Below, piece by piece: positions 22,765-55,629 of a stretch of 64,000 nt of DNA. The notes below the pieces were generated by a model. That model was not told the DNA's origin. It did not search any database and saw only the letters and a program-made list of their open reading frames with translations. Positions within the stretch are counted from its first letter, which is position 1, and each line of letters begins with the position of its first letter. The translations under genes and the position numbers were made by a program. This DNA comes from an uncultured Methanosarcinales archaeon (GTDB lineage: Archaea; Nanobdellota; Nanobdellia; Woesearchaeales; JABIAG01), in the NCBI GenBank assembly GCA_964544335.1, contig CAZJAJ010000004.1:67689-131688 (forward strand). Direction: 5' to 3'.

Positions 22765-22780
22765 GGAGACTAAAAATACC

Positions 22781-23296: not shown

Positions 23297-24168
23297 AGAA
23301 AGGCGTTAGCGTATCAATACTAAAAGAAATCACAAAAGATATGTGGATGATTAGAGTACTGCGTGCTCTACTTGGTGCATCTATTGTGTATTTGGCTGTG
23401 TATGTGATTACAATGTTGTTTACGTTGCCTACGCTTCCTATTGCGCTTTCTTTTGCGAGTTTGTATTTTATTACTGAACTTGTTAATGCTGCATCAGTTC
23501 ATCCTTTTGTTCAGGTTGAGAAGCAGTATCCTTCACTTGATGAAGAACTTCGAACGGTTCGTGACTCACTTGGTGAGGAAAATGAACTTGTTCTTGATTT
23601 GAGAAAAGATGTGTTTAAGAAAGCTAGAACGCTTATTGATATGGGTGACTTTGTTGATTTTAGGCAACTTACTGCTCGAACACTTTCTGTGTTCTTTTTG
23701 TCATTCTTAATTATTCTTATTGCATCGCTCAATGTTCGTATTGTTGATGCAGGTGAAGTGTATGATCTTGGTAAAAATTTACTTGATGATCTTCGTCAAG
23801 ATACGCTTAATGCAGGACGAGAACAGTTTCAAGTAGCCGGAGGAGATAATGTATTATCTAATCGATTCAAGAAGGTTGCTGCCATGGCAGGAATTAATGC
23901 TGGGGAGAATGAAGGTGGTGATCTCTTCGGGGAGGCAGAGCTTGCCGAACTGGGCGGAGAGAGACTTACGGTAGAGATTAGGCCTACTGATTTTGAGGTC
24001 AGTCTTGATGATTTTGAAGATGTACAAAAGAAAGATTTTCAAGACGTTGCTTTTACAGGAGAGGTGGAATCATTACAATCACTTGGACTTGAAGAAACTA
24101 TTAATGTTGAAGAGCAAGCTATTGTTAAACGATATTTTGACAAACTTGCACAGGAGGGAAGCTCATGA
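23293..24168 (+). CDS. membrane protein of MoxR/VWA operon
   Basis: 3 TM, VEKQYPSLDEELRTVRD segment, acidic C-terminus ending VKRYFDKL. Confidence 0.7.
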   Translation: MKKGVSVSILKEITKDMWMIRVLRALLGASIVYLAVYVITMLFTLPTLPIALSFASLYFITELVNAASVHPFVQVEKQYPSLDEELRTVRDSLGEENELVLDLRKDVFKKARTLIDMGDFVDFRQLTARTLSVFFLSFLIILIASLNVRIVDAGEVYDLGKNLLDDLRQDTLNAGREQFQVAGGDNVLSNRFKKVAAMAGINAGENEGGDLFGEAELAELGGERLTVEIRPTDFEVSLDDFEDVQKKDFQDVAFTGEVESLQSLGLEETINVEEQAIVKRYFDKLAQEGSS

Positions 24169-25091
24169 CGCGCTACAAAAATGTTTATGACTCTGTGGTA
24201 AAGGAAATCCACAAGGTCGTAGTTGGACAGGATGAAATGATCGAGCAGGTAATTGTTGCCTTGCTATGTAACTCAAATGCTCTACTTGAAGGGTACCCAG
24301 GTCTTGCTAAGACGTTAACTATTAACACCTTAGCACAGGTTATGGATCTTAAGTTTAGTCGTATTCAGAATACACCTGATCTTATGCCATCAGATATTAC
24401 TGGTACCTACATTATTACTGAGCAAAAAGGTGGACGGGCATTCTCTTTTCAGGAAGGACCTATTTTTGCAAATTTAGTACTTGCTGATGAGATTAATCGT
24501 GCAACACCTAAATCACAGTCTGCGTTTCTTGAAGCGATGCAGGAGAAGCAAGTTACTGTTGGTAAGAAAACGTTCAAACTTGATGATCCGTTCTTTGTAC
24601 TTGCTACACAGAACCCAATTGAACAAGAAGGTACGTATCCACTTCCTGAAGCTCAGGCAGATCGGTTCTTACTTAAGATTAATTTAGATTATCCTTCTGA
24701 GGAAGAAGAAATTGAAATTGTGCAGCGATTTACTGGTAAGAAGGACCCAAGTAATCCTAAAAAGATTCTTGATAAAAAGGGTCTTAAGAAACTGCAGGAA
24801 CTTGTGCGTGATATGCCAATTTCAAAAGATCTTGAGAAGGGCGTTGTAAAAATTATTGGAGCTACACGTAAGAATAAAACATTATTCCAGTATGGTGCGT
24901 CTCCTCGTGCGTCCATGTCACTTATTTTGGCATCAAAGGCACGAGCTTTGATTAAGGGAAGAGCTCACGTAAGTAGTGAGGATGTTAAGGCAATGGCAGC
25001 CCCGGTTCTTCGGCACAGAGTAATTTTAAGTTTTGATGCTGAACGAAAGGGCATGACTGTTGATGATGCGATTCAAAAGATAATCAGATGA
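24165..25091 (+). CDS. moxR: MoxR family AAA+ ATPase
   Basis: EGYPGLAKT, RIQNTPDLMPSDITG, DEINRA, ATQNPIEQEGTYPLPEAQADRF. Confidence 0.95.
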   Translation: MTRYKNVYDSVVKEIHKVVVGQDEMIEQVIVALLCNSNALLEGYPGLAKTLTINTLAQVMDLKFSRIQNTPDLMPSDITGTYIITEQKGGRAFSFQEGPIFANLVLADEINRATPKSQSAFLEAMQEKQVTVGKKTFKLDDPFFVLATQNPIEQEGTYPLPEAQADRFLLKINLDYPSEEEEIEIVQRFTGKKDPSNPKKILDKKGLKKLQELVRDMPISKDLEKGVVKIIGATRKNKTLFQYGASPRASMSLILASKARALIKGRAHVSSEDVKAMAAPVLRHRVILSFDAERKGMTVDDAIQKIIR

Positions 25092-25933
25092 TTCAATCAG
25101 ACTTTTTGGATGAGTTGAAGAAATTTAGTCTTGTGGTTAACAAGCGAGTTACTTCTAAGTATTCAGGGGAACGTAAGAGTTCCTACTCTGGTAATGGAAC
25201 CATCTTTAAGGACCATAGAATCTACACACTTGGTGATAATTATAAGGCTATAGATTGGCGGGTGTTTGCGCGTACCGACGATCTCTATATCAAAGTGTTT
25301 GAGGAAGAGCGAAATTTAGATGTTCACATTATCCTTGATGCAAGTAATAGTATGCATCATCGAGGAAAGTTTGATTATGCAGGTAAAATTGCTATTGGTA
25401 TGGCTTTTCTTGCGATGAAAAATAATGAGAAGGTACACTTTGCTTCTTTTGGAACAAAGGTTGAGCCGTTTAAAGGTCGTAAGGGTTTGAAACAAATTGT
25501 ATCTATGATGGATCATTTTAATTCTCTTAGACCTGCTGGGCAAACCAACATCATTTCTGCACTGCAAGAATATAGTAGTTATATTAGAACAAAATCACTT
25601 GTGGTGATTGTATCTGATTTTTTGTATCCTAATGAAACGCTTGAGAAAGCATTGCATTACATTCGAAAGGGTCATAAGGTGAAGTTAGTTCAGATTCTTG
25701 ATGAAGAGGAGGTTGAGATGCCACTGAGCGGTGACTTTAAGTTTATTGATTCTGAATCAAAGGTTGTGCTACGTACGTATGTGTCTAAACGTCTTCAAGA
25801 ACAATACAAAGAACGACTGGAGGGGCATACTCATGAAGTTCGTGAACTTGCTGCGCTTCATGGATTTACTTTTCTTTCTTTTTCAACTGAAACGCCGTTG
25901 TTTGATAGCTTCTTTGAGCTCACTACAACATAA
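25088..25933 (+). CDS. DUF58 domain protein
   Basis: FKDHRIYTLGD...IDWRVFART...EEER, DASNSM, VSDFL. Confidence 0.9.
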   Translation: MIQSDFLDELKKFSLVVNKRVTSKYSGERKSSYSGNGTIFKDHRIYTLGDNYKAIDWRVFARTDDLYIKVFEEERNLDVHIILDASNSMHHRGKFDYAGKIAIGMAFLAMKNNEKVHFASFGTKVEPFKGRKGLKQIVSMMDHFNSLRPAGQTNIISALQEYSSYIRTKSLVVIVSDFLYPNETLEKALHYIRKGHKVKLVQILDEEEVEMPLSGDFKFIDSESKVVLRTYVSKRLQEQYKERLEGHTHEVRELAALHGFTFLSFSTETPLFDSFFELTTT

Positions 25934-28213: not shown

Positions 28214-30022
28214 ATGGACATGAAAGAGCTTTGTGCAATGGCAACCATCCTTCGCAAGGACTCCATTGAGATGACTACGGCTGCGGGATCTGGACACCCC
28301 ACAAGCTGTTTGTCGTGTGCGGATGTGATGAGTGCCCTCTTCTTTCATGCCATGTCTTATGATACTTCTGATCCACAGAATCCAAATAATGATCAGTTTA
28401 TTTTGAGTAAGGGACATGCGGCACCTATTTTGTATGCTGCATTGTCACATGCTGGGTGTATTGATGATGATTTACTGGGTTTGCGTTCATTTAAGAGCAG
28501 GCTTGAGGGGCATCCCAATCCTCGTTCTTTACCTTGGGTGAAGGTGGGAACGGGTTCTTTGGGTCAAGGTCTTTCTATTGGTCTTGGTATGGCACTTGCT
28601 GCACGTGAACAAAAGCGTAAGTATATGACGTATGTGTTGCTTGGTGATGGTGAGATTGCTGAAGGGTCAGTGTATGAGGCACTTGAACTTGCAAACGAGT
28701 ATGGTGTGAATAATTTGTGTGCTATTGTTGATGTGAATCGTCTTGGACAATCTGGTCCTACGATGATTGAGCATAGAATGAAGGTGTATAAGAAACGGTT
28801 TAGTTCATTTGGTTGGGATGTGATTGTTGTAAATGGTCATAGTATGCGGGCTGTTGTTCGCGCTCTTGATAAGGCAAAGAGTAGTAAGAAGCCAACGTGT
28901 ATTCTTGCTAAGACGTACAAGGGATATGGTGTTTCGTTCTTGCAAGATAAGGATGGGTGGCACGGTAAGTCACTGAGCTTAGAGGAAGCTGGAGAAGCAT
29001 ACAAGGAACTTGGTATGGCCGTTGCACCTCATATGAAAATTAAGCGTGTGAAGAAAGCCAAAGGTATTGATGTGCGGGCTGTGAAGTTGTCCTGTAATTT
29101 TAAGAAAGGTGATCTTGTTGCAACACGTGATGCGTATGGTGTTGGTCTTAAACTACTTGCTAAGAAGAGTAAACATCTCATTGTTACTGATGGGGAAGTT
29201 CGAGGAAGTACTCGTGCAGGTAAAATGCTTGATGTTGCTCCCGATAGATTTTTTGATGGGTATATTGCTGAGCAAAATTTAGTTGGTCTGAGTCTTGGGC
29301 TTGCATGCCAGGGACATCCCGTGTTTACATCTACTTTTTCTGCATTTTTTACTCGGGCGCATGATCAGATTCGTATGGGTGCTCTTTCGTTAGTTAATTT
29401 GAACTATGTTGGTTCACATGTGGGCGTATCTATTGGCGCTGATGGTGTTTCACAAATGGCTCTTGGTGATCTTGGGATGTTTCGTTCATTTCCTGATATG
29501 AAAGTGGTGTGTCCATCTGATGCTGTGAGTACGGTTAAATTACTTGAGCAGATGCATAATGATCCAGGTCAATGCTATATGCGAACGGCTCGTCCAAAGA
29601 CGCCTGTTTTATATGGTAATTCTGAAAGCTTTCCTATTGGGACGTTTAAGATTGTGCATAGTTTGCCAAAACCTAAAGCGTTGATTTTGGCTATGGGTGT
29701 TACGGTTGCTGAAGCCTCTGAAGCGTTTAAGGAACTGAAGAGTTCTGGTGTGAACACTACAGTGCTTGATTGTTATTCACTCAAACCCTTTGATGATAAG
29801 AAGTTGCAACGGATGGCAAAAGGTGTGAAGAAAATTGTTGTGGTAGAAGATCATTATGAACAAGGCGGTCTTGGTGAGCGTGTGTTTAGAAGTCTTAGTG
29901 GCATGAAGGTCGATATTGTGCATTTGTATGTGCATGGTGTTCCACATTCTGGTAGTGGTAGAGAACTACTTGGTGTGTATGGTATTGATAAGGATGCTAT
30001 TGTGAAGGCTGTTAGGAAGTAG
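28214..30022 (+). CDS. tkt: transketolase, single-chain
   Basis: GSGHPTS, SKGHAAP, GSLGQG, GDGE...N TPP motif, IAEQN, GADGVSQM, EDHY. Confidence 0.93.
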   Translation: MDMKELCAMATILRKDSIEMTTAAGSGHPTSCLSCADVMSALFFHAMSYDTSDPQNPNNDQFILSKGHAAPILYAALSHAGCIDDDLLGLRSFKSRLEGHPNPRSLPWVKVGTGSLGQGLSIGLGMALAAREQKRKYMTYVLLGDGEIAEGSVYEALELANEYGVNNLCAIVDVNRLGQSGPTMIEHRMKVYKKRFSSFGWDVIVVNGHSMRAVVRALDKAKSSKKPTCILAKTYKGYGVSFLQDKDGWHGKSLSLEEAGEAYKELGMAVAPHMKIKRVKKAKGIDVRAVKLSCNFKKGDLVATRDAYGVGLKLLAKKSKHLIVTDGEVRGSTRAGKMLDVAPDRFFDGYIAEQNLVGLSLGLACQGHPVFTSTFSAFFTRAHDQIRMGALSLVNLNYVGSHVGVSIGADGVSQMALGDLGMFRSFPDMKVVCPSDAVSTVKLLEQMHNDPGQCYMRTARPKTPVLYGNSESFPIGTFKIVHSLPKPKALILAMGVTVAEASEAFKELKSSGVNTTVLDCYSLKPFDDKKLQRMAKGVKKIVVVEDHYEQGGLGERVFRSLSGMKVDIVHLYVHGVPHSGSGRELLGVYGIDKDAIVKAVRK

Positions 30023-42680: not shown

Positions 42681-43267
42681 AGATTAGTGGCGTTACACAG
42701 ATTACATACTTGGCAAAGGGTTCTCGCGGTCTTGTGTATACTGGAGTGTTTCGTGGAAAGAAGGTTGGTATTAAGGCACGCAACCCCACGTCAAAGGCAT
42801 CACTTACGCTTGCAAAGGAAGCATCTATGCTGCAAAAGGTAAATGCACTTGGCATTGGTCCTACGTTCTTGCGTCTTGGAAAGCATTATGTAATGTATGT
42901 GTTTGTTGAAGGGGTGCATATGGATGTGTGGGAGAAGACGGCAACTGATGTGCAAAAGAAACGTGTGTACAAGCGATTGTTTGCGCAGTGTTATGCGATG
43001 GACAAGATGGGACTGAATAAAGAAGAGATGCTTCGTCCGTATTCTAATGTAATTATTACAAAGGGCAATATTCCTGTGCTGATTGATTTTGAGCGAGCTC
43101 ATTTTAGTGAGCAGCCAAAGAATGTGACGCAGTTTGCATCCTATGTGATTAGTAAGTGTGGATTTAATAGTCTTAAGAAGAAAGAACTTTATAAGCTCAG
43201 TTCGCTGTATAAGCCAAATCCATCAAAAAAAATGTTTGATGAGCTTGTAAGAAAATGTCTACAGTAA
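42677..43267 (+). CDS. atypical Ser/Thr protein kinase-like protein
   Basis: KGSRGLVY Gly loop, VGIK, GIGP, NVII, LIDFE; ATGA overlap with the HemK2 gene. Confidence 0.75.
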   Translation: MKISGVTQITYLAKGSRGLVYTGVFRGKKVGIKARNPTSKASLTLAKEASMLQKVNALGIGPTFLRLGKHYVMYVFVEGVHMDVWEKTATDVQKKRVYKRLFAQCYAMDKMGLNKEEMLRPYSNVIITKGNIPVLIDFERAHFSEQPKNVTQFASYVISKCGFNSLKKKELYKLSSLYKPNPSKKMFDELVRKCLQ

Positions 43268-43962
43268 ATAACACTCATATTGATCAAAATTTTGTAGATA
43301 GAAGAACTAAGCGTCTTTTTGTGTGCCATGCTAAGAAGTTTATTTTTGCTGAAATACCAAAAGCAGGTTGTAGTTCTCTTAAATATGCCATTTTACAGCA
43401 TGATTTTCCAAAGCGTCTTACTAAAAACATTGACCAGATTCATAATCGGGTTGGTTATTATTTTAGTAATCCCAATGTAATTTCAACAGATGATTTAAAT
43501 CTTGAAAAATTTAAAGATTATACCACTTTCATAGTGTATCGAGATCCTGTTAAGAGGTTTTCTTCATTTTATAATGAAAAGATATGCTCAGATAGAACTA
43601 AATCAGTGTTTGTTGAAGATAATCATGCAAAAGGAATGAGTCCCATGCAGGTTCTTGATTTAGTTAAGAAGGAATTTCAAAAACCAATCCATAGACAAGA
43701 ACCTCATGTTCGTAAACAGATTCTATCTCATACTATACCTTTTGATTATGTGGTTGATTTAGGTGATCTTAATATGTTCATGAAAGAAAAGTTTGATGTT
43801 AGTCTTAAGGTATTAAATGCTAAGAAAAAGAGATATAGACTTACTGAGAAAGAAGCAGAGAGAGTAAAAGAGATATATGCTGATGATTATGCTATCAAGG
43901 TAACTTATCATCCGAAAACTGAAACTTTTTTTTCTCGTATACTAAAGAAGTTATTGAATTAA
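43255..43962 (+). CDS. sulfotransferase (Sulfotransfer_2-like)
   Basis: IPKAGCSS 5'-PSB and RDPVKRFSSFY 3'-PB motifs. Confidence 0.85.
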   Translation: MSTVNNTHIDQNFVDRRTKRLFVCHAKKFIFAEIPKAGCSSLKYAILQHDFPKRLTKNIDQIHNRVGYYFSNPNVISTDDLNLEKFKDYTTFIVYRDPVKRFSSFYNEKICSDRTKSVFVEDNHAKGMSPMQVLDLVKKEFQKPIHRQEPHVRKQILSHTIPFDYVVDLGDLNMFMKEKFDVSLKVLNAKKKRYRLTEKEAERVKEIYADDYAIKVTYHPKTETFFSRILKKLLN

Positions 43963-46306: not shown

Positions 46307-47149
46307 TCATGTGTTTCTTGAGAAGATGTTTTGTATGAGTTCTACTGCCCCGGGGAGGTTCTGATCATTGTACTGCAAGGCATATCCGTTTTTTTGGGAG
46401 AGTTTACAGGCAAAATCAAAGAATTGCTCTTGTGCTTGTCTATTGTCTGGGACGCCCATGTTTTTTGCAACGTTGTCGTTAATGATGTTATTGAGTATTT
46501 GTGGTGAGGAGAGCTTTGTTAGTAGGGGATTATGTTCTTGTTTATAGGTTGGAAATATGAAGATGAGTTGTTTGTGGGTGCTTGTTTTTTGTGACATGGT
46601 GGGATTTTTGATGTTCTTGTCTTCTTGGTTTCGTATGCGTATGGAGGACATGAAGGGAATGATATCAAATCCATTTTGTGTTTCTTTTATGAAGATCATG
46701 TCATCACACTGAAGGTGAAAGCCTTGCGTGCTCATGAGGGTTGAGAGGGTTGATTTTCCTGACATGGATGGTCCTGAGAAAATGATTGATGCACGTTCAT
46801 TGGTCACTAGGGCTCCATGGATACGTTCGTATCCCATTGATGAGAGAATGCTACCTAATGGGCGTTGAATGATCATGTCTGCATCAAGTAGAAATGGGAG
46901 CTCAAGGTAGTTGCCATACACTTTCTTTTGTTTGAAGTCGATAAATGATTGTTCGAACGGAAAGCCGTTCTCTTCTGTGAAGGCGTTTTCTTTTTTGGTT
47001 GCAAGATAGAAGGTGATGGTAATTTGATCTTGTTGTTGTGTTTGTAGGTCACAGAGATGTTCTTCTATTATGTCAAGTATGGCCTTGCTGTCTGCGAAAA
47101 CTTCTATTTTGAGTCTATTGGTTTTGAATTCCTTGTAGTGCTCAAACAT
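46307..47149 (-). CDS. HPr kinase-like P-loop kinase (lasso/RiPP-associated type)
   Basis: IHGA, GPSMSGKST P-loop, CDDMIFI; 8-bp overlap with the GT4 gene. Confidence 0.8.
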   Translation of the reverse strand: MFEHYKEFKTNRLKIEVFADSKAILDIIEEHLCDLQTQQQDQITITFYLATKKENAFTEENGFPFEQSFIDFKQKKVYGNYLELPFLLDADMIIQRPLGSILSSMGYERIHGALVTNERASIIFSGPSMSGKSTLSTLMSTQGFHLQCDDMIFIKETQNGFDIIPFMSSIRIRNQEDKNIKNPTMSQKTSTHKQLIFIFPTYKQEHNPLLTKLSSPQILNNIINDNVAKNMGVPDNRQAQEQFFDFACKLSQKNGYALQYNDQNLPGAVELIQNIFSRNT

Positions 47150-48440
47150 CTTTTTTCTCCAAAAGTGGTTTTATTTGCTCGTTGTAGATTTTTTCTTCGT
47201 TGTAGCGTCTTCGTATGTCTATTGCCATTTGTTGTGCTTTGTTTTTTTTGAGCTCTTTTATGATGTCTTTTGCAATTTTTTTGTAAAATGATTTATTTTT
47301 CTTGTAGTATTCTGCAAAAAGTTCCTGCGGGTTATGTTCTTGCTTCCAATTTACTCCATATGTACTTCTCATTTTTCCTCTAAGATCTGCGAAAGGATAA
47401 TATAGTGCATGTTCTCCACCCATTTCTTTTAGTGCAGGTGTGTTGTTGTTGAGTATGCAGAGATTACTCATAATTGCTGCTTCTTGGAGAATGAGACTAC
47501 ATGCTTCTGCAGTTGATGGGTGTATGAATACATTTGATAGAGAAAAGAGTTCCTGCATTACTTCTGAACTACACCCTCCCATGAGTTTTTCGTCAACTTC
47601 TGTGGTGAATGTGACGTATGATTCCTCAAGACCTATTTTTTGCATAAGACTTTTTGTTTTTAGATGACCTAGTCCTTCACCCACTCTTCCACCATATGCT
47701 TCTGCAAGTATTACTCTGGCATTTTTTCCTTGATCAACGAGTGCTTTTGTAATGAAAAGAATGTGTTCTATTTGTTTAAATCCTCTATCTAGGCTTGTTC
47801 CAAACACGATGGAAACGTCTGCTTGAAGTATATTACTTTTTTGTACTATTTTTTCAGTTAATGAATGCAGATTAAGATATTCAGGACTCACTCTTGTATT
47901 GTGAACAAATGTGACATTTTTTTTAGGCATATCATACATTTTTGCAAAACCACTCACGTGTTCTTTTGCAACTGTTACAAGAATCGAAGATGGTATTGGG
48001 TTAAAGCGGAGTTCGTGAGGAAATGTTGGGTTTTTTTGATGTTGTTGCGCGGTTGAATGAAACCAGTGTAACCACTTGACTTTTGGGTATTTGTTGATGT
48101 ATTTTCTTATAGCTTTATTCACGTGAAGGAATTTTGGGTGATAGATGAGATCGTGTTCCACAACTACATCTATGTCTTCTAGTTCTTTTTCTAGTGCTTT
48201 GTAAAATTTTTCTACTTGTTTTTCAAACTCCTCTTCTGTTTCTTCTTTAAGATAATCAACGTTAGGTAGTTCTGAAATGTAGGATACATTAGGCAATTTT
48301 TTCCATTGGGGACATGTTTTTGGAAGAATAACGCGAACAGTATGTTCTTTTGAAAACATCCGTATGTGGGATTTTACTACAGAATTCACACTATAATTTG
48401 GGTCCCAAGAATACGTTAGATGAACTATTGCAACATTCAT
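47142..48440 (-). CDS. GT4-family glycosyltransferase
   Basis: MNVAIVH start, HDLIY, HWFHS, PSTAEACSLILQEA (E-x7-E); start taken at 48440. Confidence 0.8.
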   Translation of the reverse strand: MNVAIVHLTYSWDPNYSVNSVVKSHIRMFSKEHTVRVILPKTCPQWKKLPNVSYISELPNVDYLKEETEEEFEKQVEKFYKALEKELEDIDVVVEHDLIYHPKFLHVNKAIRKYINKYPKVKWLHWFHSTAQQHQKNPTFPHELRFNPIPSSILVTVAKEHVSGFAKMYDMPKKNVTFVHNTRVSPEYLNLHSLTEKIVQKSNILQADVSIVFGTSLDRGFKQIEHILFITKALVDQGKNARVILAEAYGGRVGEGLGHLKTKSLMQKIGLEESYVTFTTEVDEKLMGGCSSEVMQELFSLSNVFIHPSTAEACSLILQEAAIMSNLCILNNNTPALKEMGGEHALYYPFADLRGKMRSTYGVNWKQEHNPQELFAEYYKKNKSFYKKIAKDIIKELKKNKAQQMAIDIRRRYNEEKIYNEQIKPLLEKKDV

Positions 48441-48444
48441 ACAT

Positions 48445-48499
48445 GAAGTAAAAAAAAGGAGATTAAAAATATTCCCACACCAGGGTATACCTTTACTCC
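48445..48499 (-). terminator. possible stem-loop / T-tract between precursor and GT4
   Basis: Minus-strand GGAGTAAA pairs with TTTACTTC (one G-T), with an 8-nt T run. Confidence 0.3.
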
Positions 48500-48501
48500 A
48501 C

Positions 48502-48711
48502 CTATGGTGATGTGGTAGGCGGAGATGTAGTAGGTGGAGATGTAGTTCCTGGAGACGTGGTTCCTGGAGACGTGGTTCCTGGAGATGTAGTTCCGCCACC
48601 AGTTGTTCCAGGAGATGTCGTTCCGCCGCCTGTTGTTGCTGTTGCCATAACCACTTCCTTTACTTCACCGTGACTAGTCAATTTTGGTTTTTCGTATGTT
48701 TCTTTGTTCAT
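48502..48711 (-). CDS. RiPP-like precursor peptide: lasso-type leader + (TTSP)x7 core
   Basis: YEKPKLTSHGEVKEVV matches YxxPxLxxxG; 2 bp downstream of the RRE gene; repeat differences sit at synonymous positions in this frame. Confidence 0.85.
   Translation of the reverse strand: MNKETYEKPKLTSHGEVKEVVMATATTGGGTTSPGTTGGGTTSPGTTSPGTTSPGTTSPPTTSPPTTSP
48505..48621 (-). repeat. coding tandem repeat, mostly 15-bp units encoding (G/P)TTSP
   Basis: Units such as ggttcctggagacgt / agttcctggagatgt repeated on the + strand. Confidence 0.9.
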
Positions 48712-48713
48712 AA

Positions 48714-48980
48714 TTATTTTCTCTGTAAAATCTCTTTTGATGTTAATTCCATGATGAGTTCATCCACATCAGTGGTAAGTGTCTTTTCTGCAACTTCAAA
48801 TTGACCCATTAGCTCTTTTGTAATGTCCTGATTATTTTTTCCACTAATTACGTGTTCAAATATTCTTGAAGCAGTCTTATTGAGACTAAAGTGTTTTCCG
48901 CTTTGCGTATTAAGAATTACTGTGTGATCATTCATCGTTCTGTGGATGATATTGTCACTTAATACTAAACTTTCAGTCAT
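48714..48980 (-). CDS. PqqD-family RiPP recognition element (RRE)
   Basis: 88 aa; VILNTQSGKHFSLNKTASRIFE...ITKELMGQFEV...DVDELIMEL. Confidence 0.92.
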   Translation of the reverse strand: MTESLVLSDNIIHRTMNDHTVILNTQSGKHFSLNKTASRIFEHVISGKNNQDITKELMGQFEVAEKTLTTDVDELIMELTSKEILQRK

Positions 48981-49108
48981 TGTGTAATTATGCTAGAAGA
49001 CCTATTTAAATATTTCTATTTGCAAATAGGTGTTCTCGACGTTAATTGCGCATCTAAGACCTTTTAAACCACAAGAATATTTATATTTGTTTTTCACTGC
49101 TCAGTGTT

Positions 49109-50155
49109 ATGGGTTATCGGGGGATTTTAGTTGATGTTATTAAGAACGAGTTTAATGAGGATACTTCTTATTCCCCTACCGAGGTAGATAAGGTTTACCT
49201 GCCTGAAGAGGTAGTAAGAAATAAGTATGTTGTGCGGTTGTTACTTTATTATCTTGACAAGATGAATGTTACTTGCTTATCTTCACCAAGTGTATCATTT
49301 TTACTAAGTCAACAACTGGTCACACACTCTAAGAATGAGATGTATGTACAGGTTACAAAAGAAATTGTCTCTTTGCTCGAATTAAATGGTGTTGAATGCG
49401 TACTCATGAAAGGTATAGCTCTGCTAGATACATTGTATGATGGGGACCTAGATCAGCGCAACATGAGCGATATTGACTTATTTGTTCCGAGTAATACGTT
49501 ACTGTTCTCTAAAGATCTTCTTGTGAAAGAAGGATTTGTTGTTATTGAAGAGCGTGAACATGAGATTGGATTTGTAAGAGATGGTGTTCTAGTAGAATTA
49601 CATTCTGATTTTCATGAAGGATATGTTCCTTTGGATCCATCTACTCACAAGATTGATTTTTTTGGAAATACTATTTCTGTATTTACTCCTGAGGAAATGC
49701 TGCTTCTACTCATTCTTAATTTTTATAGGGACTCTTTTGGAACGTTCTTCTTCTCTCAGTCAGATAAAAGAGTTGGTGATGATATCTTTTTTTCAACGCT
49801 TCCCTTTATTGCAGAGATTAGGCGATTTGTTCACAAAAAACCTATTGATTATGAACGTTTATTGTATCTTACGAAGAAGTGTCCGGTTCCTCATGCTGTG
49901 TTTGGTGTATTGCTTGTGATCAAGGAATATTTTAGAGAAGATATTCCTGATGAATTTTTTGATCATGATAGGCGACTTGTAAGATTAGGTGATGCCATGA
50001 AAGAAGATTCTTTTGCTTCATGTTTTATGTTGCTGCGAAGATATTGTATTATCCACGAGAGTATTCATCTATTGAAATCTCCTCTACTTTTATTTCGTAA
50101 ATGTATTTCATTTTTTTCAAGGTCATCTTTAAGGAGGCATTATGAAGACACATAA
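49109..50155 (+). CDS. nucleotidyltransferase (NTP_transf_5-like)
   Basis: LMKGIAL...RNMSDIDLFV, VELH motifs. Confidence 0.85.
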   Translation: MGYRGILVDVIKNEFNEDTSYSPTEVDKVYLPEEVVRNKYVVRLLLYYLDKMNVTCLSSPSVSFLLSQQLVTHSKNEMYVQVTKEIVSLLELNGVECVLMKGIALLDTLYDGDLDQRNMSDIDLFVPSNTLLFSKDLLVKEGFVVIEEREHEIGFVRDGVLVELHSDFHEGYVPLDPSTHKIDFFGNTISVFTPEEMLLLLILNFYRDSFGTFFFSQSDKRVGDDIFFSTLPFIAEIRRFVHKKPIDYERLLYLTKKCPVPHAVFGVLLVIKEYFREDIPDEFFDHDRRLVRLGDAMKEDSFASCFMLLRRYCIIHESIHLLKSPLLLFRKCISFFSRSSLRRHYEDT

Positions 50156-50615
50156 AGGGGAGTATGCGCTTAAGGTAAGGAGTAATAAGAGCATGAGGCC
50201 TTTACTTCATGTGGGTGATGTGTTGTTGTATTCTCATCGTCCCATTAAACGAGGTGATGTAGTATTATATGCTGCTAAAAATAAGGTGGTTGTTCACAGA
50301 GTGCTTAGTTTTACTATGCGACATGGAGAGCAATCCTTATTGTGTAAGGGTGACAGTATGGCTTTTGAAGACCAGTGGATTATTCCAAGAAAGTGTATTT
50401 TGGGTGTTTTAGATACTATCGTTCGTGGTAAGAAGGTTATTTCACTTCATTCGGGAAAATTTCTTTATGTGAATCGTATCCTTTACATTCTTTCAAGAGT
50501 GCACTTTTGTTTTCGCTCAATGCTGTCAAGACGTTTGAGAAAAAAATATGTTAAACCACTCCATAAGATTAATTTGTTTTTTTTAAAATGTGTAGAAGTT
50601 ATTTTTAGACTATAA
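50142..50615 (+). CDS. S24/S26-family peptidase
   Basis: SMRPLL, GDVVLY, VVHRVL, KGD; overlaps the nucleotidyltransferase gene by 14 bp. Confidence 0.85.
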   Translation: MKTHKGEYALKVRSNKSMRPLLHVGDVLLYSHRPIKRGDVVLYAAKNKVVVHRVLSFTMRHGEQSLLCKGDSMAFEDQWIIPRKCILGVLDTIVRGKKVISLHSGKFLYVNRILYILSRVHFCFRSMLSRRLRKKYVKPLHKINLFFLKCVEVIFRL

Positions 50616-52253
50616 CTGTCGCTTTATTTTTGATTGTGCTACTTTTTTAATCTCATCATAGGTGTTTTGTGTTATATTTTCAATTAATTCTTCTTTTTCT
50701 TTAGTGAATGTGTAATTTGATTTTTTATGTCCTACCCAATTTCTTCCTTCTATTTGTTGGAGGATGTTCTCTTCTTTTCCATGAGGATCTATTGAGAGAA
50801 ATTTATAGAGAGCTTTTAGTACATTTTTTTGAGGATCAATGAGATCTTCATATTCTATTATGAATGTATTGTTTGGATAAAGTAGAGAAAATTCCAACAT
50901 GCAGTTGTTAACTTCTTTCCAATCCTCTGAAAGTAATTTGGTTGATCTCTGTACTTCTGCCATTTTGAATGACCTTCGATAGCTTTCAATTACTGCTTTT
51001 GGATTTCTTACCAAAAATACAAACTTTGCTTGCGGATAGAGTGAGATTAGAAATTCGAATGTCTTTCTATCTCTGTCCCCAAACCGTACTTCCTTATACC
51101 CCCAGTATTTTTTTTTGAGAGGATTAAACAATGATTCAATGAAAGTTCTACATGAACGTTTAATGTGATCATCGCCAAACCAATTTGTCCATGCCTGCCA
51201 TACACTAGGATTCTTTAATTGTGCAGTTGCTTCTTTTAGGTTATTGAGTGGTTTCTTTTTCAGTGTAAGATTTTGTTCTTCATAGAGTGTATAATATATT
51301 TTAGTGAGGTGATGCATTATGTCTCTGTTTTCACCCCAGATGGTTATGTCAGAATGAGCATTTAGTATCCGTTGCAATAATGTTGTCCCACTTCTTGCCA
51401 TACCATACATGAAGAGAGGAGATTCTGGGTTAGGTACGTGTGTTTTAATGGATACAAGGATTGATTTTGCTTTTTCTTTTATTTTTAGAGGAATTGTTTT
51501 CTTTTTTTTCAATTTTAATGTGGTGTATGTGTTGTATAGCAGGTACATTTCTTTAGAGTAAATTGGGTGTATTGAATGTGCTTTTTTTGAAAGAAGTATA
51601 TCTGTTTTTTCTTTTCTACTTTTTACGTAGACGTTTCTGTGTCTTCCGTTGCATGCTGTGAGGTCAATCCCGTTTTGTTTGAGAATGTCTCCGACCATCA
51701 TATCTTCTGTTGATGATTCGGGAATTATTTTTTCGTATTTTTCTTTTTTGAGTGGTACGCGTTCTCCATACCACCAAGGATTTCCTATTCCTTTTTGAAA
51801 ATCATAGGTTGCAAGTGTATCTACTGCTTTTTTGCTTAGCATATAACAGCCACCTGATGCCCATGTAATTCTTCTTTTTTCTTTTCGTCTGCTGTTATTT
51901 ACAATGACACCATAATAGTCACATTTTGGAATTGTATCTTCTAACCATTCATTTGGAAGAAAGAGCGTGTCGTCATCAATTTTGAAGACATAATCAAATT
52001 TTTTGTTTTTTGAGAGGTATTTTGCTAGTTGGTGTGTTTTTTTTGCAAGGTCTTGATAGGTGTCTTCACATTCTACAAAGAGCCTTTTTTCTTTTTCATC
52101 ATAATGTTCTTTTTTTGCACCTTCTACAAAGAACCATTCTACGTTATCTGGGATTAATTTTGCCCATGTTTCTCTTACTGCTTTTTGTCTTGTTTCTCTG
52201 TGTGCCTTGCAAGAGGTGATTACGAAAATGACTTTTTTATTCTTTAATTGCAT
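50610..52253 (-). CDS. GT31-like glycosyltransferase fused to a sulfotransferase
   Basis: N-half: RETW, EDTYQDLAKK, KIDDD, ASGGCYMLS, EDMMVG; C-half: GMARSGTT, WGYKE, VRNP...S, YEDL. Confidence 0.82.
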   Translation of the reverse strand: MQLKNKKVIFVITSCKAHRETRQKAVRETWAKLIPDNVEWFFVEGAKKEHYDEKEKRLFVECEDTYQDLAKKTHQLAKYLSKNKKFDYVFKIDDDTLFLPNEWLEDTIPKCDYYGVIVNNSRRKEKRRITWASGGCYMLSKKAVDTLATYDFQKGIGNPWWYGERVPLKKEKYEKIIPESSTEDMMVGDILKQNGIDLTACNGRHRNVYVKSRKEKTDILLSKKAHSIHPIYSKEMYLLYNTYTTLKLKKKKTIPLKIKEKAKSILVSIKTHVPNPESPLFMYGMARSGTTLLQRILNAHSDITIWGENRDIMHHLTKIYYTLYEEQNLTLKKKPLNNLKEATAQLKNPSVWQAWTNWFGDDHIKRSCRTFIESLFNPLKKKYWGYKEVRFGDRDRKTFEFLISLYPQAKFVFLVRNPKAVIESYRRSFKMAEVQRSTKLLSEDWKEVNNCMLEFSLLYPNNTFIIEYEDLIDPQKNVLKALYKFLSIDPHGKEENILQQIEGRNWVGHKKSNYTFTKEKEELIENITQNTYDEIKKVAQSKIKRQL

Positions 52254-52865: not shown

Positions 52866-52915
52866 TTATTCTTTGTATACAATAAGTTTAAAAGTGATTT
52901 TACTTGTTATGTAGT

Positions 52916-54595
52916 ATGCTCATGACCATTTTAGGATTGTTATTGTTACTGCTTCCTTTGCTGTGCTTTAAACTGCATAAAGCTCTTGGATGTATTGTAG
53001 TTGTGCAACTTGCTATTGGTCTTATTACGCAATTATTTGGTGTGTTTACGTATCCTGTTGTGTTTGGGCTGAATCTGGTTGTTGCATTGTTTTTAGTGAG
53101 GAAAGTCAGGTTTAGGATTAATTGGACGGTTATTGCTGTTGCTGCTATTTTGTTGTTTTCGTTTTATGGCGTGCATTATAATTACACTGGTGATGCAGTT
53201 TTTTCAGGTCAGCAACTTGATACTGTTGAAGGGATGCACTATCCTCTGCCCTATGCTTCGGATGAGTGGTATGGTGCATCAATTGCACAGCATGCTATTG
53301 AAACAGGAGGATTGCCGCTTGATCAACCGCTTCGAGAAGATATCTTCTTTATTAATTTGCAAATTGCATTTCATTCTCTGCTTGCTGAAGTTTTTATGCT
53401 TCTTGATCTTGATGTGGTGTGGAATTTTGGGGTTGCTGTTATGTTGTTTTCCACTGCCATTTGTCTTGTTGTGTATGCATTGTTGATGTTGTTTGGCGTT
53501 AGACCATCTGCTGCCATCTTTGGTTCGTTATTCACTTCGTATGTTGCGTCAAGCGGAAATATATTCACGTTATGGAACGTTATTCCTGCAAGCGTTGGTA
53601 TTTTGACGTTATTGCTTGCGTATTGTTTCTTAGTTGAAAAGAATACTCGTTACTTTTTCTTATTTGGTTTTCTGACATTAATCTTTTATCCTCCTTTTGG
53701 TGTGTTTTTACTTCCTGCAGCGTTTGTTGGACTTTCTAAAGAGTATCGTATGCGTTTTATGTATGTGGTGCTTGGTAGCGGTGTAGGTCTATTTCTTGTT
53801 GCTCTTCTTCTTGCTCCAAGATTGCAATCTGCATGGTTGTTTGTTTGGAATAAAGTATACTATCTCTCCTACACGCCCATTGGGATTGCGTATTTATTTC
53901 CCTGGGTAATCATTCCTCCTCTTTGTTTGGTGTTTGTGCTCTTTTCTTATGGGGAACTCAAGAAACGAACATGGTTTATGTACACTCTTGGTGTTGGCCT
54001 TGCGTATTGGTTGGTGTATCATTTTACGATTCAGTTCTTTATTATTAGTCAAGAACGAGTGGTGTATGTTGCTGCAGTATTACTTGTTATTGCGTGTTCA
54101 CTTGGTTTTCATCGTCTGAGTAATTTATGGAAGAAATATGATCGTTATGTTGTGGTTGGGCTGTTACTTCTTTTTGCTGTGTTTTCTTTTACCTATACAG
54201 AGGATGATCGGTTTAGAGACATGCCACTTATTGCTCACGAGAATGGAAATGTATATCGTTATGTACCTGGACCTACTGCTAGCGCCTATTTTGATGATAG
54301 TGATGCTGATTTATTTTCCACACTTGAACCATCAGTATTTTTATCAGACCCGTGGAAATCAACGGTTATTTCCATTGCTCTTGGGCATACTCCCACAACA
54401 TTAAAATCAGGTACGTTTGGGTATAAGGAAGAAAAATATCCTTATTTTTTGAATCAGAATTGTGATGGGAAGAAGAAGATACTTGACCGAGATGATATTG
54501 CATATGTGTATGGTGCACCTGAAGAGTGTTCTTTCTTAAGGTTGATAGGTATTTCAGATGAAGGATATCATTTGTATGTGTATGATGAAAATTAG
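52916..54595 (+). CDS. polytopic membrane protein, GT-C-like glycosyltransferase
   Basis: More than 10 TM, acidic YASDEWYG motif in first external loop, soluble C-terminal domain with SDPW. Confidence 0.6.
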   Translation: MLMTILGLLLLLLPLLCFKLHKALGCIVVVQLAIGLITQLFGVFTYPVVFGLNLVVALFLVRKVRFRINWTVIAVAAILLFSFYGVHYNYTGDAVFSGQQLDTVEGMHYPLPYASDEWYGASIAQHAIETGGLPLDQPLREDIFFINLQIAFHSLLAEVFMLLDLDVVWNFGVAVMLFSTAICLVVYALLMLFGVRPSAAIFGSLFTSYVASSGNIFTLWNVIPASVGILTLLLAYCFLVEKNTRYFFLFGFLTLIFYPPFGVFLLPAAFVGLSKEYRMRFMYVVLGSGVGLFLVALLLAPRLQSAWLFVWNKVYYLSYTPIGIAYLFPWVIIPPLCLVFVLFSYGELKKRTWFMYTLGVGLAYWLVYHFTIQFFIISQERVVYVAAVLLVIACSLGFHRLSNLWKKYDRYVVVGLLLLFAVFSFTYTEDDRFRDMPLIAHENGNVYRYVPGPTASAYFDDSDADLFSTLEPSVFLSDPWKSTVISIALGHTPTTLKSGTFGYKEEKYPYFLNQNCDGKKKILDRDDIAYVYGAPEECSFLRLIGISDEGYHLYVYDEN

Positions 54596-55629
54596 TTATT
54601 CTTTTTACTTTTGATACCTAGTGTTGAGAGCATGAATGCTGAGAAAATGGTTTGCATACCTATAAGTCCGAATGTGACCGTGAGCAATGGATTTGTGGTG
54701 AAATAGTATACGCTTGATAGGATGATGATTGCTCCAACAATTGCTACTTTTTCTATGCTTAGATGTTTGAATAAGTGTTCTAATCTGTTGTCTTTTTGAT
54801 TGAGATAGTTGTGCATATAGATTTTTGAGAACACAAAAAAGAAGAGGAGTTGGTATCCAAAGAGTGTTGACATGGCCATTGCTGCGCTTAAGAGTCTTCC
54901 TGGAAAATAGATAAATCCAACAATTCCAAAGAGCATGAAGTAGAGTGCGGGCAGTAGGAAAAGAATATCTGGTGTGTAAAGCAACATGTAGCGCAGATGT
55001 CTCCATCCGTCTCTAAAAGAGGATAGTTTTGATTCTCCTATGCGCGGATTGTAGGCAATTGGTATTTGTTTTGTTTTTAGTTTGTGTTTTGCTACTGCTG
55101 CAACCATTTCTGTTGCATATTCCATGCCTGTTGTTTGTAGGTTTAATGTATCATATGCTTCTTTTGTAAATGCACGCATACCGCAGTGCACATCTCTTAC
55201 GTTTGTTTTCATAAACCATCGTGCTAGTGTTGAGAGTACTGGGTTACCGATGTATTTGTGATGCCAAGGCATTGCTTTTTTGTGCATGCGTCCTGAGAAT
55301 CTATCTCCTATGACAAAATCATATCCTTTTTGTAGTGCGTGTATGAACTGTGGTATTTTATTAAAGTCGTATGTGTTATCACAATCCATCATGATAATGT
55401 ATTTACCCTTTGCTGCTTCTATTCCGTGTATGAGTGCATTACCATAGCCGTCTTGATCGTGTTTTATTACTCTTGCACCTAATTTTTTTGCAATTATTGG
55501 ACTATTATCTGTTGAACTGTCTGAAAGAATTATTTCATGAGGTATTTTTGCTAAAATGTTTTGTATTTTTTTAATGCATACTGGAACTGCTTTTTCTTCG
55601 TTTTGACAGGGTAGAACGATTGAGATCAC
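54592..55629 (-). CDS. GT2 glycosyltransferase, dolichol-phosphate mannose synthase-like
   Basis: SIVLPCQNEE, DSSTD, GYGNAL, MDCD, GDRF, DVHCGMRAF; C-terminal TMs. Confidence 0.9.
   Translation of the reverse strand: MISIVLPCQNEEKAVPVCIKKIQNILAKIPHEIILSDSSTDNSPIIAKKLGARVIKHDQDGYGNALIHGIEAAKGKYIIMMDCDNTYDFNKIPQFIHALQKGYDFVIGDRFSGRMHKKAMPWHHKYIGNPVLSTLARWFMKTNVRDVHCGMRAFTKEAYDTLNLQTTGMEYATEMVAAVAKHKLKTKQIPIAYNPRIGESKLSSFRDGWRHLRYMLLYTPDILFLLPALYFMLFGIVGFIYFPGRLLSAAMAMSTLFGYQLLFFFVFSKIYMHNYLNQKDNRLEHLFKHLSIEKVAIVGAIIILSSVYYFTTNPLLTVTFGLIGMQTIFSAFMLSTLGIKSKKNN

Follow-up and report, generated by a model that had tools for sequence, protein, structure and literature searches.

A probable archaeal gene cluster of the LPP type, with its own glycosyltransferase, for a linear, leader-guided, O-modified peptide

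The locus at positions 46307-52253 of the window (i.e. the whole 64-kb stretch of DNA analysed here) probably directs the biosynthesis of a ribosomal peptide that is linear, leader-guided and O-modified, and would then be an archaeal, glycosyltransferase (GT)-containing variant of the clusters for 'linear polyphosphorylated peptides' (LPPs). An archaeal LPP-type cluster with a built-in glycosyltransferase would be new, although the LPP kind itself is already known from Bacillota, to which the first description of the kind considered it restricted (Popov et al., Nat Commun 2026;17:6633; PMC13381572). In that work, the cluster of Paenibacillus alginolyticus is lppA-K-B-S-D-N, and the LPP core set comprises a SipW-like peptidase, a discrete RRE, a kinase of HprK-like type, an NTP transferase and a YxxP leader. 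The first-pass annotation of the window had stated that no characterised pathway has the same make-up; this no longer holds, as LPPs share the core set and the roles of their kinase and peptidase were demonstrated by gene deletions and mass spectrometry (PMC13381572). The product of the window locus is most likely phosphorylated, sugar-decorated, trimmed and still linear. The locus consists of the following features:

46307..47149, minus strand: HprK-like (ScmC/LppK-like) peptide kinase, 280 aa
47142..48440, minus strand: GT-B/GT4-like glycosyltransferase, 432 aa
48502..48711, minus strand: precursor peptide, 69 aa
48505-48648, minus strand: precursor core, approximately residues 22-69, MATATTGGG(TTSPG)n...TTSP
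48649-48711, minus strand: precursor leader, approximately residues 1-21, MNKETYEKPKLTSHGEVKEVV
48714..48980, minus strand: discrete RRE, PqqD-like, 88 aa
48981..49108: intergenic region between divergent genes; A/T-rich boxes resembling TATA lie approximately 25-30 nt upstream of each start codon
49109..50155, plus strand: NTP_transf_5 nucleotidyltransferase (LppN/PsmN-like), 348 aa
50142..50615, plus strand: soluble archaeal/ER-type signal-peptidase-I homologue (S26; LppS-like leader peptidase), 157 aa
50610..52253, minus strand: GT31-like glycosyltransferase::PAPS-type sulfotransferase, 547 aa

All seven ORFs were found at the coordinates given earlier, and the domains and coupling first described for them were recovered as well. 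The minus-strand operon runs from the PqqD-type RRE through the 69-aa peptide and the GT-B glycosyltransferase to the HprK-like kinase, the peptide ATG lying 2 nt past the RRE stop and the GT and kinase genes overlapping by 8 nt; the probable GT start is the ATG at 48440, rather than the GTG at 48599, which would make the gene overlap that of the peptide. Divergent from this operon is the pair formed by NTP_transf_5 and the archaeal-type signal peptidase I, overlapping by 14 nt, and the GT31::sulfotransferase gene is convergent with the S26 gene, with a 6-nt overlap. The TATA-like boxes read from the intergenic sequence, 'atatttaaatagg' 5' of the RRE gene and 'atatttatatttg' 5' of the nucleotidyltransferase gene, are putative promoters. 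The archaeal origin of the window is confirmed by the markers that it contains (TFB, S19e, L31e, S6e, aIF2-gamma), and also by two tRNA genes whose length exceeds that of a plain tRNA and which probably carry introns. The top named relative of its IleRS comes from a Woesearchaeota MAG (49% identity), and a host in the DPANN group seems plausible.

The RRE matches PF05402 (PqqD; E 1.4e-11) and lasso_PqqD_Strm (E 4.4e-14); among NCBIfam families, it comes closest to the lasso B1 chaperone, at 52 bits and thus below the cut-off of 70, and its closest solved relatives are TbiB1 (5v1u, E 1.8e-8) and TfuB1. Its residues N34/D71 align with N33/D70 of LppB, which hold the Pro kink and the Tyr hydroxyl of the leader (PMC13381572), and match the Tyr-binding type, so that a YxxP leader would fit. 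Such a motif, YxxPxL, is present in the adjoining peptide at Tyr6-x-x-Pro9-x-Leu11; in the six-frame translation of the window, [YW]xxPx[LVI] has a frequency of 0.31 per 1000 residues, and a Y-x-x-P-x-[LIV] leader stands beside PqqD in five independent cassettes. We therefore propose, from the conserved Asn/Asp pair and the adjoining leader, that the RRE would bind this segment of the precursor. The precursor itself matches lasso_cyano (E 2.9e-5) and falls just short of lasso_leader_L3 (18.9 bits versus a cut-off of 19; NCBIfam). Against a profile of Bacillota LPP leaders, its leader scores an insignificant 3.5 bits; the FET cleavage motif is missing, and the window and LPP leaders share just YxxPxL and a His. 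The boundary between leader and core probably lies near residue 21/22.

At the DNA level, the core is built of tandem 15-nt units, and every nucleotide difference among the seven TTSP units (42/42) affects a third codon position when the minus-strand frame is read. Thus, the peptide frame is real, and it is under purifying selection. The composition of the core (T19 G10 P9 S7 A2 M1; no Asp, Glu or Cys) makes a lasso macrolactam ring impossible for want of Asp/Glu, and, with Cys lacking too, leaves neither macrolactam nor thioether as an option. This bears directly on the possibility of a split lasso pathway, in which the precursor would become a tailored lasso peptide through a cyclase and a B2 protease whose genes lie at some other genomic site. 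Both RRE and leader are indeed of lasso type, genes for a kinase, a nucleotidyltransferase and a sulfotransferase are known to tailor lasso peptides (as in loci L017 and L018), and our inspection covered 64 kb of the genome. However, besides the isopeptide ring being ruled out by the core, the Thr at -2 on which B2 proteases rely is missing from the leader, and a dedicated S26 peptidase is present at the locus. Moreover, the Pfam scan (64 window ORFs, among them all those of at least 110 aa except opposite-strand ORFs nested inside larger genes) detected neither Asn_synthase (lasso cyclase) nor Transglut_core3 (lasso B2), which bears out the earlier remark that both are absent near the locus. 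One membrane-anchored, generic Transglut_core protein is encoded at 14421-15056, 32 kb from the locus, and gave no lasso-B2 NCBIfam match. A split pathway is accordingly most improbable. No ABC exporter was detected among the same 64 ORFs either.

The first-pass annotation had further proposed that lasso leader recognition was re-used for a linear peptide. The lasso-type RRE, with its relatives TbiB1 and TfuB1, and the YxxPxL leader support this part of the proposal. An origin as a lasso cluster minus its cyclase does not follow: cyclase-less cassettes of RRE, HprK-like and NTP_transf_5 genes (often with S26) accompanied by radical-SAM (rSAM) enzymes are common in bacteria, so that the module is not simply such a cluster. 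One cassette, in an Eisenbacteria MAG, combines PqqD, a ScmC-like kinase, a 43-aa ORF with YEAPKL and a protein in which S26 and NTP_transf_5 are fused. Another conceivable origin is that the window locus is a decayed or non-functional relic of a ScmC/PqqD-type radical-SAM cassette, acquired from bacteria and since deprived of its rSAM maturase. Around NTP_transf_5 relatives, most of the close contexts do associate PqqD, a ScmC-like kinase and the nucleotidyltransferase with an rSAM-SPASM enzyme and Cys-rich cores, and the window proteins are very divergent: the closest relative of the nucleotidyltransferase among 1.84 billion cluster representatives is just 27% identical, and k-mer searches with this protein and with the kinase returned no relatives. 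Yet every ORF is intact with its catalytic residues conserved, the genes are translationally coupled, the Cys-free core looks adapted to O-modification, and another archaeal locus (L012) keeps the pairing of GT and kinase in the form of a fusion. We regard decay as very unlikely.

The enzymes of the locus are consistent with O-modification of a linear peptide. The kinase matches HprK_rel_A (TIGR04352, E 4.5e-9) and ScmC (E 5.6e-5), and carries a precomputed PF27840 ScmC annotation; its family profile has HPr kinase 1ko7 as top PDB match, HPr kinases being its best solved relatives, and no variation is seen among six cassette kinases at H111, at the P-loop G126-x4-G131-K132-x-T134 or at D149. 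LppK and the paeninodin kinases polyphosphorylate one Ser. By homology to these, the window kinase would phosphorylate one or more hydroxyl residues of the Thr/Ser/Pro/Gly-rich core. LppK rejected an S3T substrate (PMC13381572), whereas the core predicted here from the leader register has Thr at position +3. For the glycosyltransferase, a Glyco_trans_1_4 match (E 8e-4) and an E-x7-E motif (AEACSLILQEA) read from the sequence lend some support to the earlier label 'GT4', but no match was obtained against PDB sequences and the label stays tentative; the structure model has a pLDDT of 45. The nucleotidyltransferase matches PF14907 (E 3e-23) and shares K101, G102, R117, D121/D123, E163 and H165 with its relatives. 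PsmN, the NTP_transf_5 enzyme of pseudomycoidin, adds hexoses to phospho-Ser. By analogy, the window enzyme and the GT-B, which would be co-translated with the kinase, may add sugars or phospho-linked sugars. LppN was inactive in the heterologous host used (PMC13381572).

The S26 protein exceeds the cut-off of TIGR02228 (53.5 bits), and its S17, H52 and D71 (with D77) line up with catalytic residues in SEC11A and in cassette homologues; no TM segment is predicted. With a profile built from eight Bacillota LppS-type peptidases, the protein reaches 51.4 bits, versus 24.9 bits with housekeeping archaeal signal peptidases, and by this measure groups with the former. These scores, together with the precedent of LppS, which removes the LPP leader solely when the RRE is present (PMC13381572), support the earlier suggestion that S26 removes the leader: the soluble peptidase would cut it off an RRE-presented peptide, near Val21/Met22 or after Ala23-Thr24-Ala25 according to the register with LPP leaders. 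No N-terminal extension of the window protein is possible, so that most of an alpha1 helix like that of LppS, which contacts the RRE (PMC13381572), is missing. Finally, the GT31::sulfotransferase combines Galactosyl_T (E 8e-8, residues 22-104) and Sulfotransfer_3 (E 4e-24, residues 279-489) with a DDD motif and PAPS-binding motifs (RSGTT, RNPK) read from the sequence, and no TM segment is predicted. It is possibly an accessory tailoring enzyme of the cluster, with adjacency as the sole link, and one might speculate that it extends and sulfates the glycan in the cytoplasm.

Judged by sequence, the closest related locus is L012, where a 722-aa GT::kinase fusion resembles the window GT in its N-terminal half (41% identity over the full length, E 3e-116) and the window kinase in its C-terminal half (35%, E 4e-49), next to a nucleotidyltransferase, an S26 peptidase, an ABC-2 (Wzm/Wzt-like) exporter pair and extra GTs. 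Neither an RRE nor a candidate precursor is found on its 9.7-kb contig, and the GT31::sulfotransferase is missing as well. This locus is an argument for a pathway other than a RiPP, in which the enzymes would serve a surface glycan, a teichoic-like polymer or protein glycosylation, the RRE and short ORF being a remnant or a regulatory/carrier accessory. In the same direction point locus L004, where NTP_transf_5 occurs with GT2 and PMT_2 and an RRE is missing, and the genes that flank the window locus, an AglJ-like GT2 (dolichyl-phosphate-hexose transferase) and a polytopic membrane protein. The setting is indeed a glycosylation neighbourhood, and capsule loci likewise house the Bacillota lpp clusters. 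Against this reading, the RRE and precursor genes come first in one tightly coupled operon with those of the GT and kinase, purifying selection acts on the peptide frame and the leader-binding residues are kept in the RRE; in addition, the RRE and precursor sometimes lie at another genome site in the Bacillota dataset, which could account for L012. It is the alternative to which we give some, albeit limited, credit, and an LPP-type peptide cluster remains our preferred reading.

Among known systems, the HPr-rel-A system (TIGR04352 HprK_rel_A, TIGR04353 PqqD_rel_X) pairs a PqqD-family chaperone with HprK-like proteins and provides the top NCBIfam match of the window kinase, but the scores are far under the family cut-offs (35.8 bits versus 200), the window RRE has no PqqD_rel_X match and a second HprK-related protein is lacking. 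The uncharacterised ScmC/PqqD radical-SAM cassettes (SynChlorMet-like; TIGR04248-TIGR04251, PF27840) share PqqD, a ScmC-type HprK-like kinase, NTP_transf_5 and often an S26-like peptidase with the window, and have short precursors with KKxYxxPx[LIV] leaders; what sets them apart are maturases of the rSAM-SPASM kind (one or two per cassette), Cys-rich cores and, usually, ABC-2 exporters, in place of which the window has glycosyltransferases. Paeninodin/pseudomycoidin-type lasso clusters resemble the window in their lasso-type RRE, leader motif, NTP_transf_5 enzyme and HprK-like kinase (which acts on the linear precursor) and, in some clusters (PMC8498205) and in the lasso-type locus L017, in a sulfotransferase gene. 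The window, in contrast, lacks the Asn-synthetase-like cyclase and transglutaminase-like B2, its core is unable to cyclise, its leader peptidase is a serine S26 enzyme, and its RRE belongs to the Tyr-binding type, unlike the two paeninodin-like RREs used for comparison, which are of the Trp type. From the LPP clusters, the window differs by its archaeal host, the absence of an MsbA-like exporter and of the VLxHQxIxFET leader consensus, a TTSP(G/P) repeat in the core, a GT-B glycosyltransferase within the operon and coupled to the kinase, a GT31::sulfotransferase as neighbour, a peptidase without the N-terminal helix of LppS, and identities of just approximately 20-30% between proteins. Both nevertheless combine, without a cyclase and in glycosylation-rich surroundings, a discrete RRE whose Asn/Asp pair would bind a YxxP leader, an HprK-like kinase, a PF14907 NTP transferase, a signal peptidase I of the SipW/archaeal type that is soluble, has a Ser-His-Asp triad and ends in a basic tail, and a precursor whose N-terminal leader follows the pattern YxxPx[VL]..H and whose Gly/Pro-rich core is variable.

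The feature at 46307-52253 is real: all of the ORFs described by the first-pass annotation are present where it had placed them, and Pfam and NCBIfam searches characterize them as follows.

46307-47149, minus strand: HprK-related kinase (Pfam/NCBIfam)
47142-48440, minus strand: GT-B/GT4-like glycosyltransferase, weak match (Pfam/NCBIfam)
48502-48711, minus strand: 69-aa ORF, the first 20 residues of which match lasso leader models (E 2.9e-5; 18.9 bits versus a cut-off of 19)
48714-48980, minus strand: PqqD-type RRE (Pfam E 1.4e-11; best NCBIfam model, lasso B1 chaperone)
49109-50155, plus strand: NTP_transf_5 (PF14907) nucleotidyltransferase (Pfam E 3e-23)
50142-50615, plus strand: archaeal-type signal peptidase I of the S26 family (exceeds the TIGR02228 cut-off)
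50610-52253, minus strand: Galactosyl_T + Sulfotransfer_3 fusion (Pfam/NCBIfam)

The RRE and peptide genes are separated by 2 nt, and overlaps of 8 and 14 nt join the glycosyltransferase to the kinase and the nucleotidyltransferase to the S26 peptidase, respectively. None of the six locus enzymes carries a transmembrane segment, so that the chemistry is expected to be cytoplasmic.

The 69-aa ORF encodes the peptide MNKETYEKPKLTSHGEVKEVV-MATATTGGGTTSPGTTGGGTTSPGTTSPGTTSPGTTSPPTTSPPTTSP, whose C-terminal 48 residues consist of 19 Thr, 10 Gly, 9 Pro, 7 Ser, 2 Ala and 1 Met, and no others. This core is encoded by a 15-nt tandem repeat, and all of the nucleotide differences among its seven TTSP units (42/42) are confined to the third codon position when read in the minus-strand frame, which argues that the peptide frame is genuine. 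A 53-aa plus-strand ORF across the repeat was rejected as coding, as the repeat-unit divergence is synonymous only in the minus-strand frame. No Asp or Glu occurs beyond residue 19, so that a lasso isopeptide ring is impossible and the reading of the product as a lasso peptide was rejected; the lack of Cys in the core likewise makes a sacti-, ranthi- or lanthipeptide impossible. Hydroxyl groups are the only side-chain targets open to modification. This acid-free, Cys-free TTSP-repeat core would be an attractively simple substrate for resolving the chemistry of the kinase, nucleotidyltransferase and glycosyltransferase. A search for [YW]xxPx[LVI] motifs from 44 to 56 kb revealed no further precursor.

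Pfam scans covered 64 ORFs, i.e. all those of at least 110 aa minus opposite-strand ORFs nested within larger genes. Neither Asn_synthase nor Transglut_core3 (PF13471) was detected among these 64 ORFs of the 64-kb window, in agreement with the earlier claim that a lasso cyclase and a lasso B2 protease are absent near the locus. Radical_SAM and SPASM domains were found in none of the scanned ORFs, ABC_tran in 0 of the 64, and no ABC transporter was found among window ORFs of at least 400 aa. The sole transglutaminase-like protein (14421-15056, plus strand; 211 aa, N-terminal transmembrane helix, Transglut_core PF01841 E 1e-14) lies 32 kb from the locus and has no lasso-B2 match in NCBIfam.

According to reviews, paeninodin-type lasso clusters come with HprK-like kinases, PF14907 nucleotidyltransferases and sulfotransferases, and the pseudomycoidin enzyme PsmN puts hexoses on phospho-Ser (PMC8498205). 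The first-pass annotation had proposed that lasso-type leader recognition was re-used to deliver a linear Ser/Thr-rich peptide to O-modifying enzymes, with an S26 peptidase removing the leader, and knew of no characterized pathway of this make-up; its mechanism appears largely right, whereas its novelty has been overtaken by the ‘linear polyphosphorylated peptides’ (LPPs) of Popov et al. (Nat Commun 2026; PMC13381572). In LPP clusters, the signal peptidase I (LppS) is SipW-like and of archaeal type, the RRE (LppB) is a discrete protein, the kinase (LppK) is HprK-like, and an NTP transferase (LppN) and an MsbA-like pump are also encoded; the clusters have no cyclase, encode a precursor with the leader YxxPxVLxHQxIxFETxxS, and often sit within capsule/glycosyltransferase-rich loci (PMC13381572). 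LppK polyphosphorylates core Ser3, leader removal by LppS requires LppB, and no activity of LppN could be detected in the heterologous host, possibly because a partner was missing (PMC13381572). The family is called restricted to Bacillota in that paper; its Supplementary Data 1 includes SpI-RRE pairs outside Bacillota, labelled ‘RRE others’ and absent from the text discussion, for instance in a Bathyarchaeota MAG (OGD46515/OGD46518), in Beckwithbacteria of the CPR, in Acidobacteriota, Bacteroidota and Brocadia, and in Chondromyces, the last with a kinase::RRE fusion (PMC13381572).

Sequences from the supplement of Popov et al. were used for direct tests against the LPP family. The window S26 protein reaches 51.4 bits with a profile built from eight LppS-type peptidases, versus 24.9 bits with housekeeping archaeal ones. 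Its Ser17, His52 and Asp71/77 align with the catalytic residues of SEC11A and LppS, and it has in common with the LppS type a basic C-terminal tail and the lack of an N-terminal membrane anchor or transmembrane segment. No N-terminal extension of the ORF is possible, and the protein thus lacks the alpha1 helix, which in LppS touches the RRE.

The RRE matches lasso_PqqD_Strm (E 4.4e-14), TbiB1 (E 1.8e-8) and ScmD (E 2.6e-3; 18 bits versus a cut-off of 100), and the leader matches lasso_cyano and lasso_leader_L3, a combination of PqqD-like B1-type RRE and YxxPxL leader for which all NCBIfam scores lie under the curated cut-offs. Against a profile of LPP RREs, it scores 31.0 bits, generic lasso B1 models and TbiB1 scoring higher. 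In the alignment, its N34 and D71 occupy the positions that hold N33 and D70 in eight LPP RREs, and Gly and Gln in the two Trp-specific paeninodin-like RREs compared. In LppB, N33 and D70 fix the leader Pro kink and the Tyr hydroxyl (PMC13381572), and such a Tyr-type pocket fits the YxxP leader of the window precursor. This leader shares with the LPP register the Tyr, the Pro, hydrophobic residues at +5 and +11 and a His at +8; it has no FET, and position +3 of the predicted core is Thr, where the LPP consensus has phospho-Ser. The LPP-leader profile gave it 3.5 bits, no better than six-frame background, and a PDB search with the leader returned chance TALE-repeat matches only.

The kinase matches HprK_rel_A, ScmC and Hpr_kinase_C, with the P-loop and Asp conserved, and its best PDB matches are HPr kinases; its likeness to LppK is at the level of family models and HPr kinase structures. 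The ScmC match is far under threshold (E 5.6e-5; 22.6 bits versus a cut-off of 125), and PF27840 is precomputed as ‘weak’. Homologues of the locus are distant: k-mer searches with the kinase and nucleotidyltransferase returned the queries themselves only, the conserved stretches were too few for alignment-based locus searches, and the nearest relative of the nucleotidyltransferase, sought exhaustively with HMMER among 1.84 billion cluster representatives, is 27% identical.

Relatives of the NTP_transf_5 protein were gathered by profile search followed by context look-ups, and fall into three kinds of neighbourhood. The first, at three loci (L005, L017, L018), is the classical lasso cluster with PqqD, Transglut_core3, Asn_synthase, a ScmC-like kinase and, in some cases, a sulfotransferase. 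The second (L003, L006/L007, L008, L010/L011, L016) consists of bacterial cassettes without cyclase, usually in the order PqqD, radical SAM(-SPASM) protein, short ORF, ScmC-like kinase, tailoring enzyme and NTP_transf_5, some with an S26-like peptidase and an ABC exporter, and all with Y-x-x-P-x-[LIV] near the N-terminus of the short ORF. At L003, in the Candidatus Eisenbacteria MAG GCA_042566975.1 (6825-11683), a 43-aa ORF with YEAPKL is followed by PqqD, PqqD-rSAM-SPASM, a ScmC-like kinase and a 560-aa S24/S26-peptidase::NTP_transf_5 fusion. The other loci of this second kind, among them L006 from an Aminicenantia MAG, form a recurrent cassette with a 53-57-aa Cys-rich precursor and a KKxYxxPx[LIV] leader, in some cases with a methyl- or acetyltransferase. 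The literature searched yielded no description of this radical SAM cassette, nor anything helpful on SynChlorMet, on PF14907 or on HPr kinases combined with radical SAM and PqqD proteins.

The third kind is represented by L012, an archaeal metagenome contig (Ga0315284_10018973) that encodes a DUF357 protein. Here, an ABC-2 exporter pair, the nucleotidyltransferase and the S26 peptidase converge on a 722-aa protein (4653-6821, minus strand), the N-terminal half of which is 41% identical to the window glycosyltransferase (E 3e-116) and the C-terminal half 35% identical to the window kinase (E 4e-49). The fusion strongly argues that the glycosyltransferase and the kinase act together. Neither an RRE nor a candidate precursor was found on the 9.7 kb of L012, and it is this contig that keeps alive the main rival explanation, namely that a surface-glycan pathway, and not a free peptide, is what these enzymes serve; in the Bacillota dataset, there are cases of RRE and precursor genes at another genomic location.

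Other searches with the glycosyltransferase gave little. An alignment search of GTDB genomes yielded no match, its profile found no sequence matches in the PDB, and hhalign of this profile against a bona fide GT4 was insignificant, though the E-x7-E region aligned. A single-sequence AlphaFold model (pLDDT 45.5) was set aside as a query for fold search.

At 52904-55629 stand a 563-aa polytopic membrane protein, with no PDB or family match, and a convergent AglJ/dolichyl-phosphate-hexose-transferase-like GT2 (E 1e-42). This pair may form a glycosylation module at the flank of the cluster, and the membrane protein could be a GT-C or an exporter that escapes recognition; together the two genes show that the cluster lies in a glycosylation neighbourhood, as in Bacillota. 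The GT31::sulfotransferase fusion is ascribed a role in the cluster by adjacency alone. A second sulfotransferase, of another family (Sulfotransfer_2, E 1e-11), is encoded at 43255-43962 on the plus strand, 2.3 kb past the operon end, adjoining genes for a 198-aa protein with weak likeness to Bud32/RIO and for one that resembles nucleoside 2-deoxyribosyltransferases.

Archaeal markers in the window include TFB, ribosomal proteins S19e, L31e and S6e, and aIF2-gamma, and the IleRS is 49% identical to that of a Woesearchaeota MAG, a match that makes a DPANN host plausible. The locus is also present in two sequencing runs of the source samples, SRR15635848 and SRR15635858. Two tRNA genes are longer than a plain tRNA and probably contain introns: a tRNA-Lys of about 97 nt (2847-2944), and a 119-nt match (10254-10372, minus strand) that is detected by Rfam and receives no call from ARAGORN. 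A scan for sigma-70 promoters and terminators stayed at or below the level of shuffled sequence, which is unsurprising in an archaeon. MutS-MutL, glucose-6-phosphate dehydrogenase, glucokinase and transketolase (3576-7759, 15935-18149 and 28214-30022), in what is a small-genome-type archaeon, seem to be of bacterial type, in keeping with the extensive gene transfer described for DPANN archaea. Elsewhere in the window, a BatA/VWA/DUF7408 - VWA - MoxR (AAA_3) - DUF58 gene set (18638-25933) resembles the Bacteroides aerotolerance (Bat) operon, and a Fic/DOC-domain protein (175-1155, minus strand; E 3e-14) lies at the window edge.

We propose that the locus functions like an LPP cluster: a linear peptide would be guided by the RRE to kinase-centred enzymes that O-modify it, and a dedicated soluble S26 peptidase would then release the modified product. 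The leader-RRE-kinase-nucleotidyltransferase-S26 module would in this way extend to an archaeon and at least one further archaeal metagenome contig, and a brand-new RiPP class would thereby reach Archaea. Two gene fusions are informative, GT::kinase in the archaeal contig and S26::NTase in Eisenbacteria. The glycosyltransferase is hard-wired to the module, through translational coupling in the window and through the gene fusion in L012, and is thereby nominated as a concrete candidate for the biosynthetic partner that is missing. Moreover, the bacterial radical SAM cassettes, the S26::NTase fusion and the present locus suggest a portable ‘phosphorylate, decorate, cleave’ module, common to lasso, radical SAM, LPP and glycosyltransferase-type pathways, whose kinase, nucleotidyltransferase and S26 peptidase would plug onto a lasso cyclase, a radical SAM enzyme, a glycosyltransferase or nothing, depending on lineage.

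A bolder and in our view improbable reading is that the product is a mucin-like linear peptide, its TTSP repeats bearing glycans, phosphate-linked and/or O-linked, to which sulfate is then added, with the kinase-coupled glycosyltransferase as the ‘missing partner’ of the LppN-type nucleotidyltransferase; such a product could be a peptide primer or anchor for the surface glycan of a host-dependent DPANN cell and not a secreted antibiotic. If true, this would be RiPP chemistry previously unseen and would offer a genetic handle on archaeal O-glycosylation, of which we know none.

Compared with known systems, the locus differs from SynChlorMet/ScmC-type cassettes, where a radical SAM/SPASM maturase, without counterpart among the scanned window ORFs, stands beside PqqD and ScmC. 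With lasso clusters it shares the PqqD-like B1 RRE and YxxPxL leader, but has no cyclase or B2 among the scanned window ORFs and lacks the Asp/Glu that lasso cores, with Gly/Ala/Ser/Cys at position 1, carry at positions 7-9 for the isopeptide ring. Nor is it a member of the Bacillota LPP clade, because the MsbA-like exporter LppD and the leader consensus with cleavage after T-1 are lacking and its host is an archaeon, whereas LPP hosts are Bacillota. It nevertheless has in common with LPP clusters an LppS-type peptidase, a Tyr-type RRE, an HprK-like kinase, a PF14907 protein and, over the 64-kb window, the absence of cyclase and B2, and on this gene content it is best filed as a putative new archaeal, glycosyltransferase-containing variant of the LPP type.
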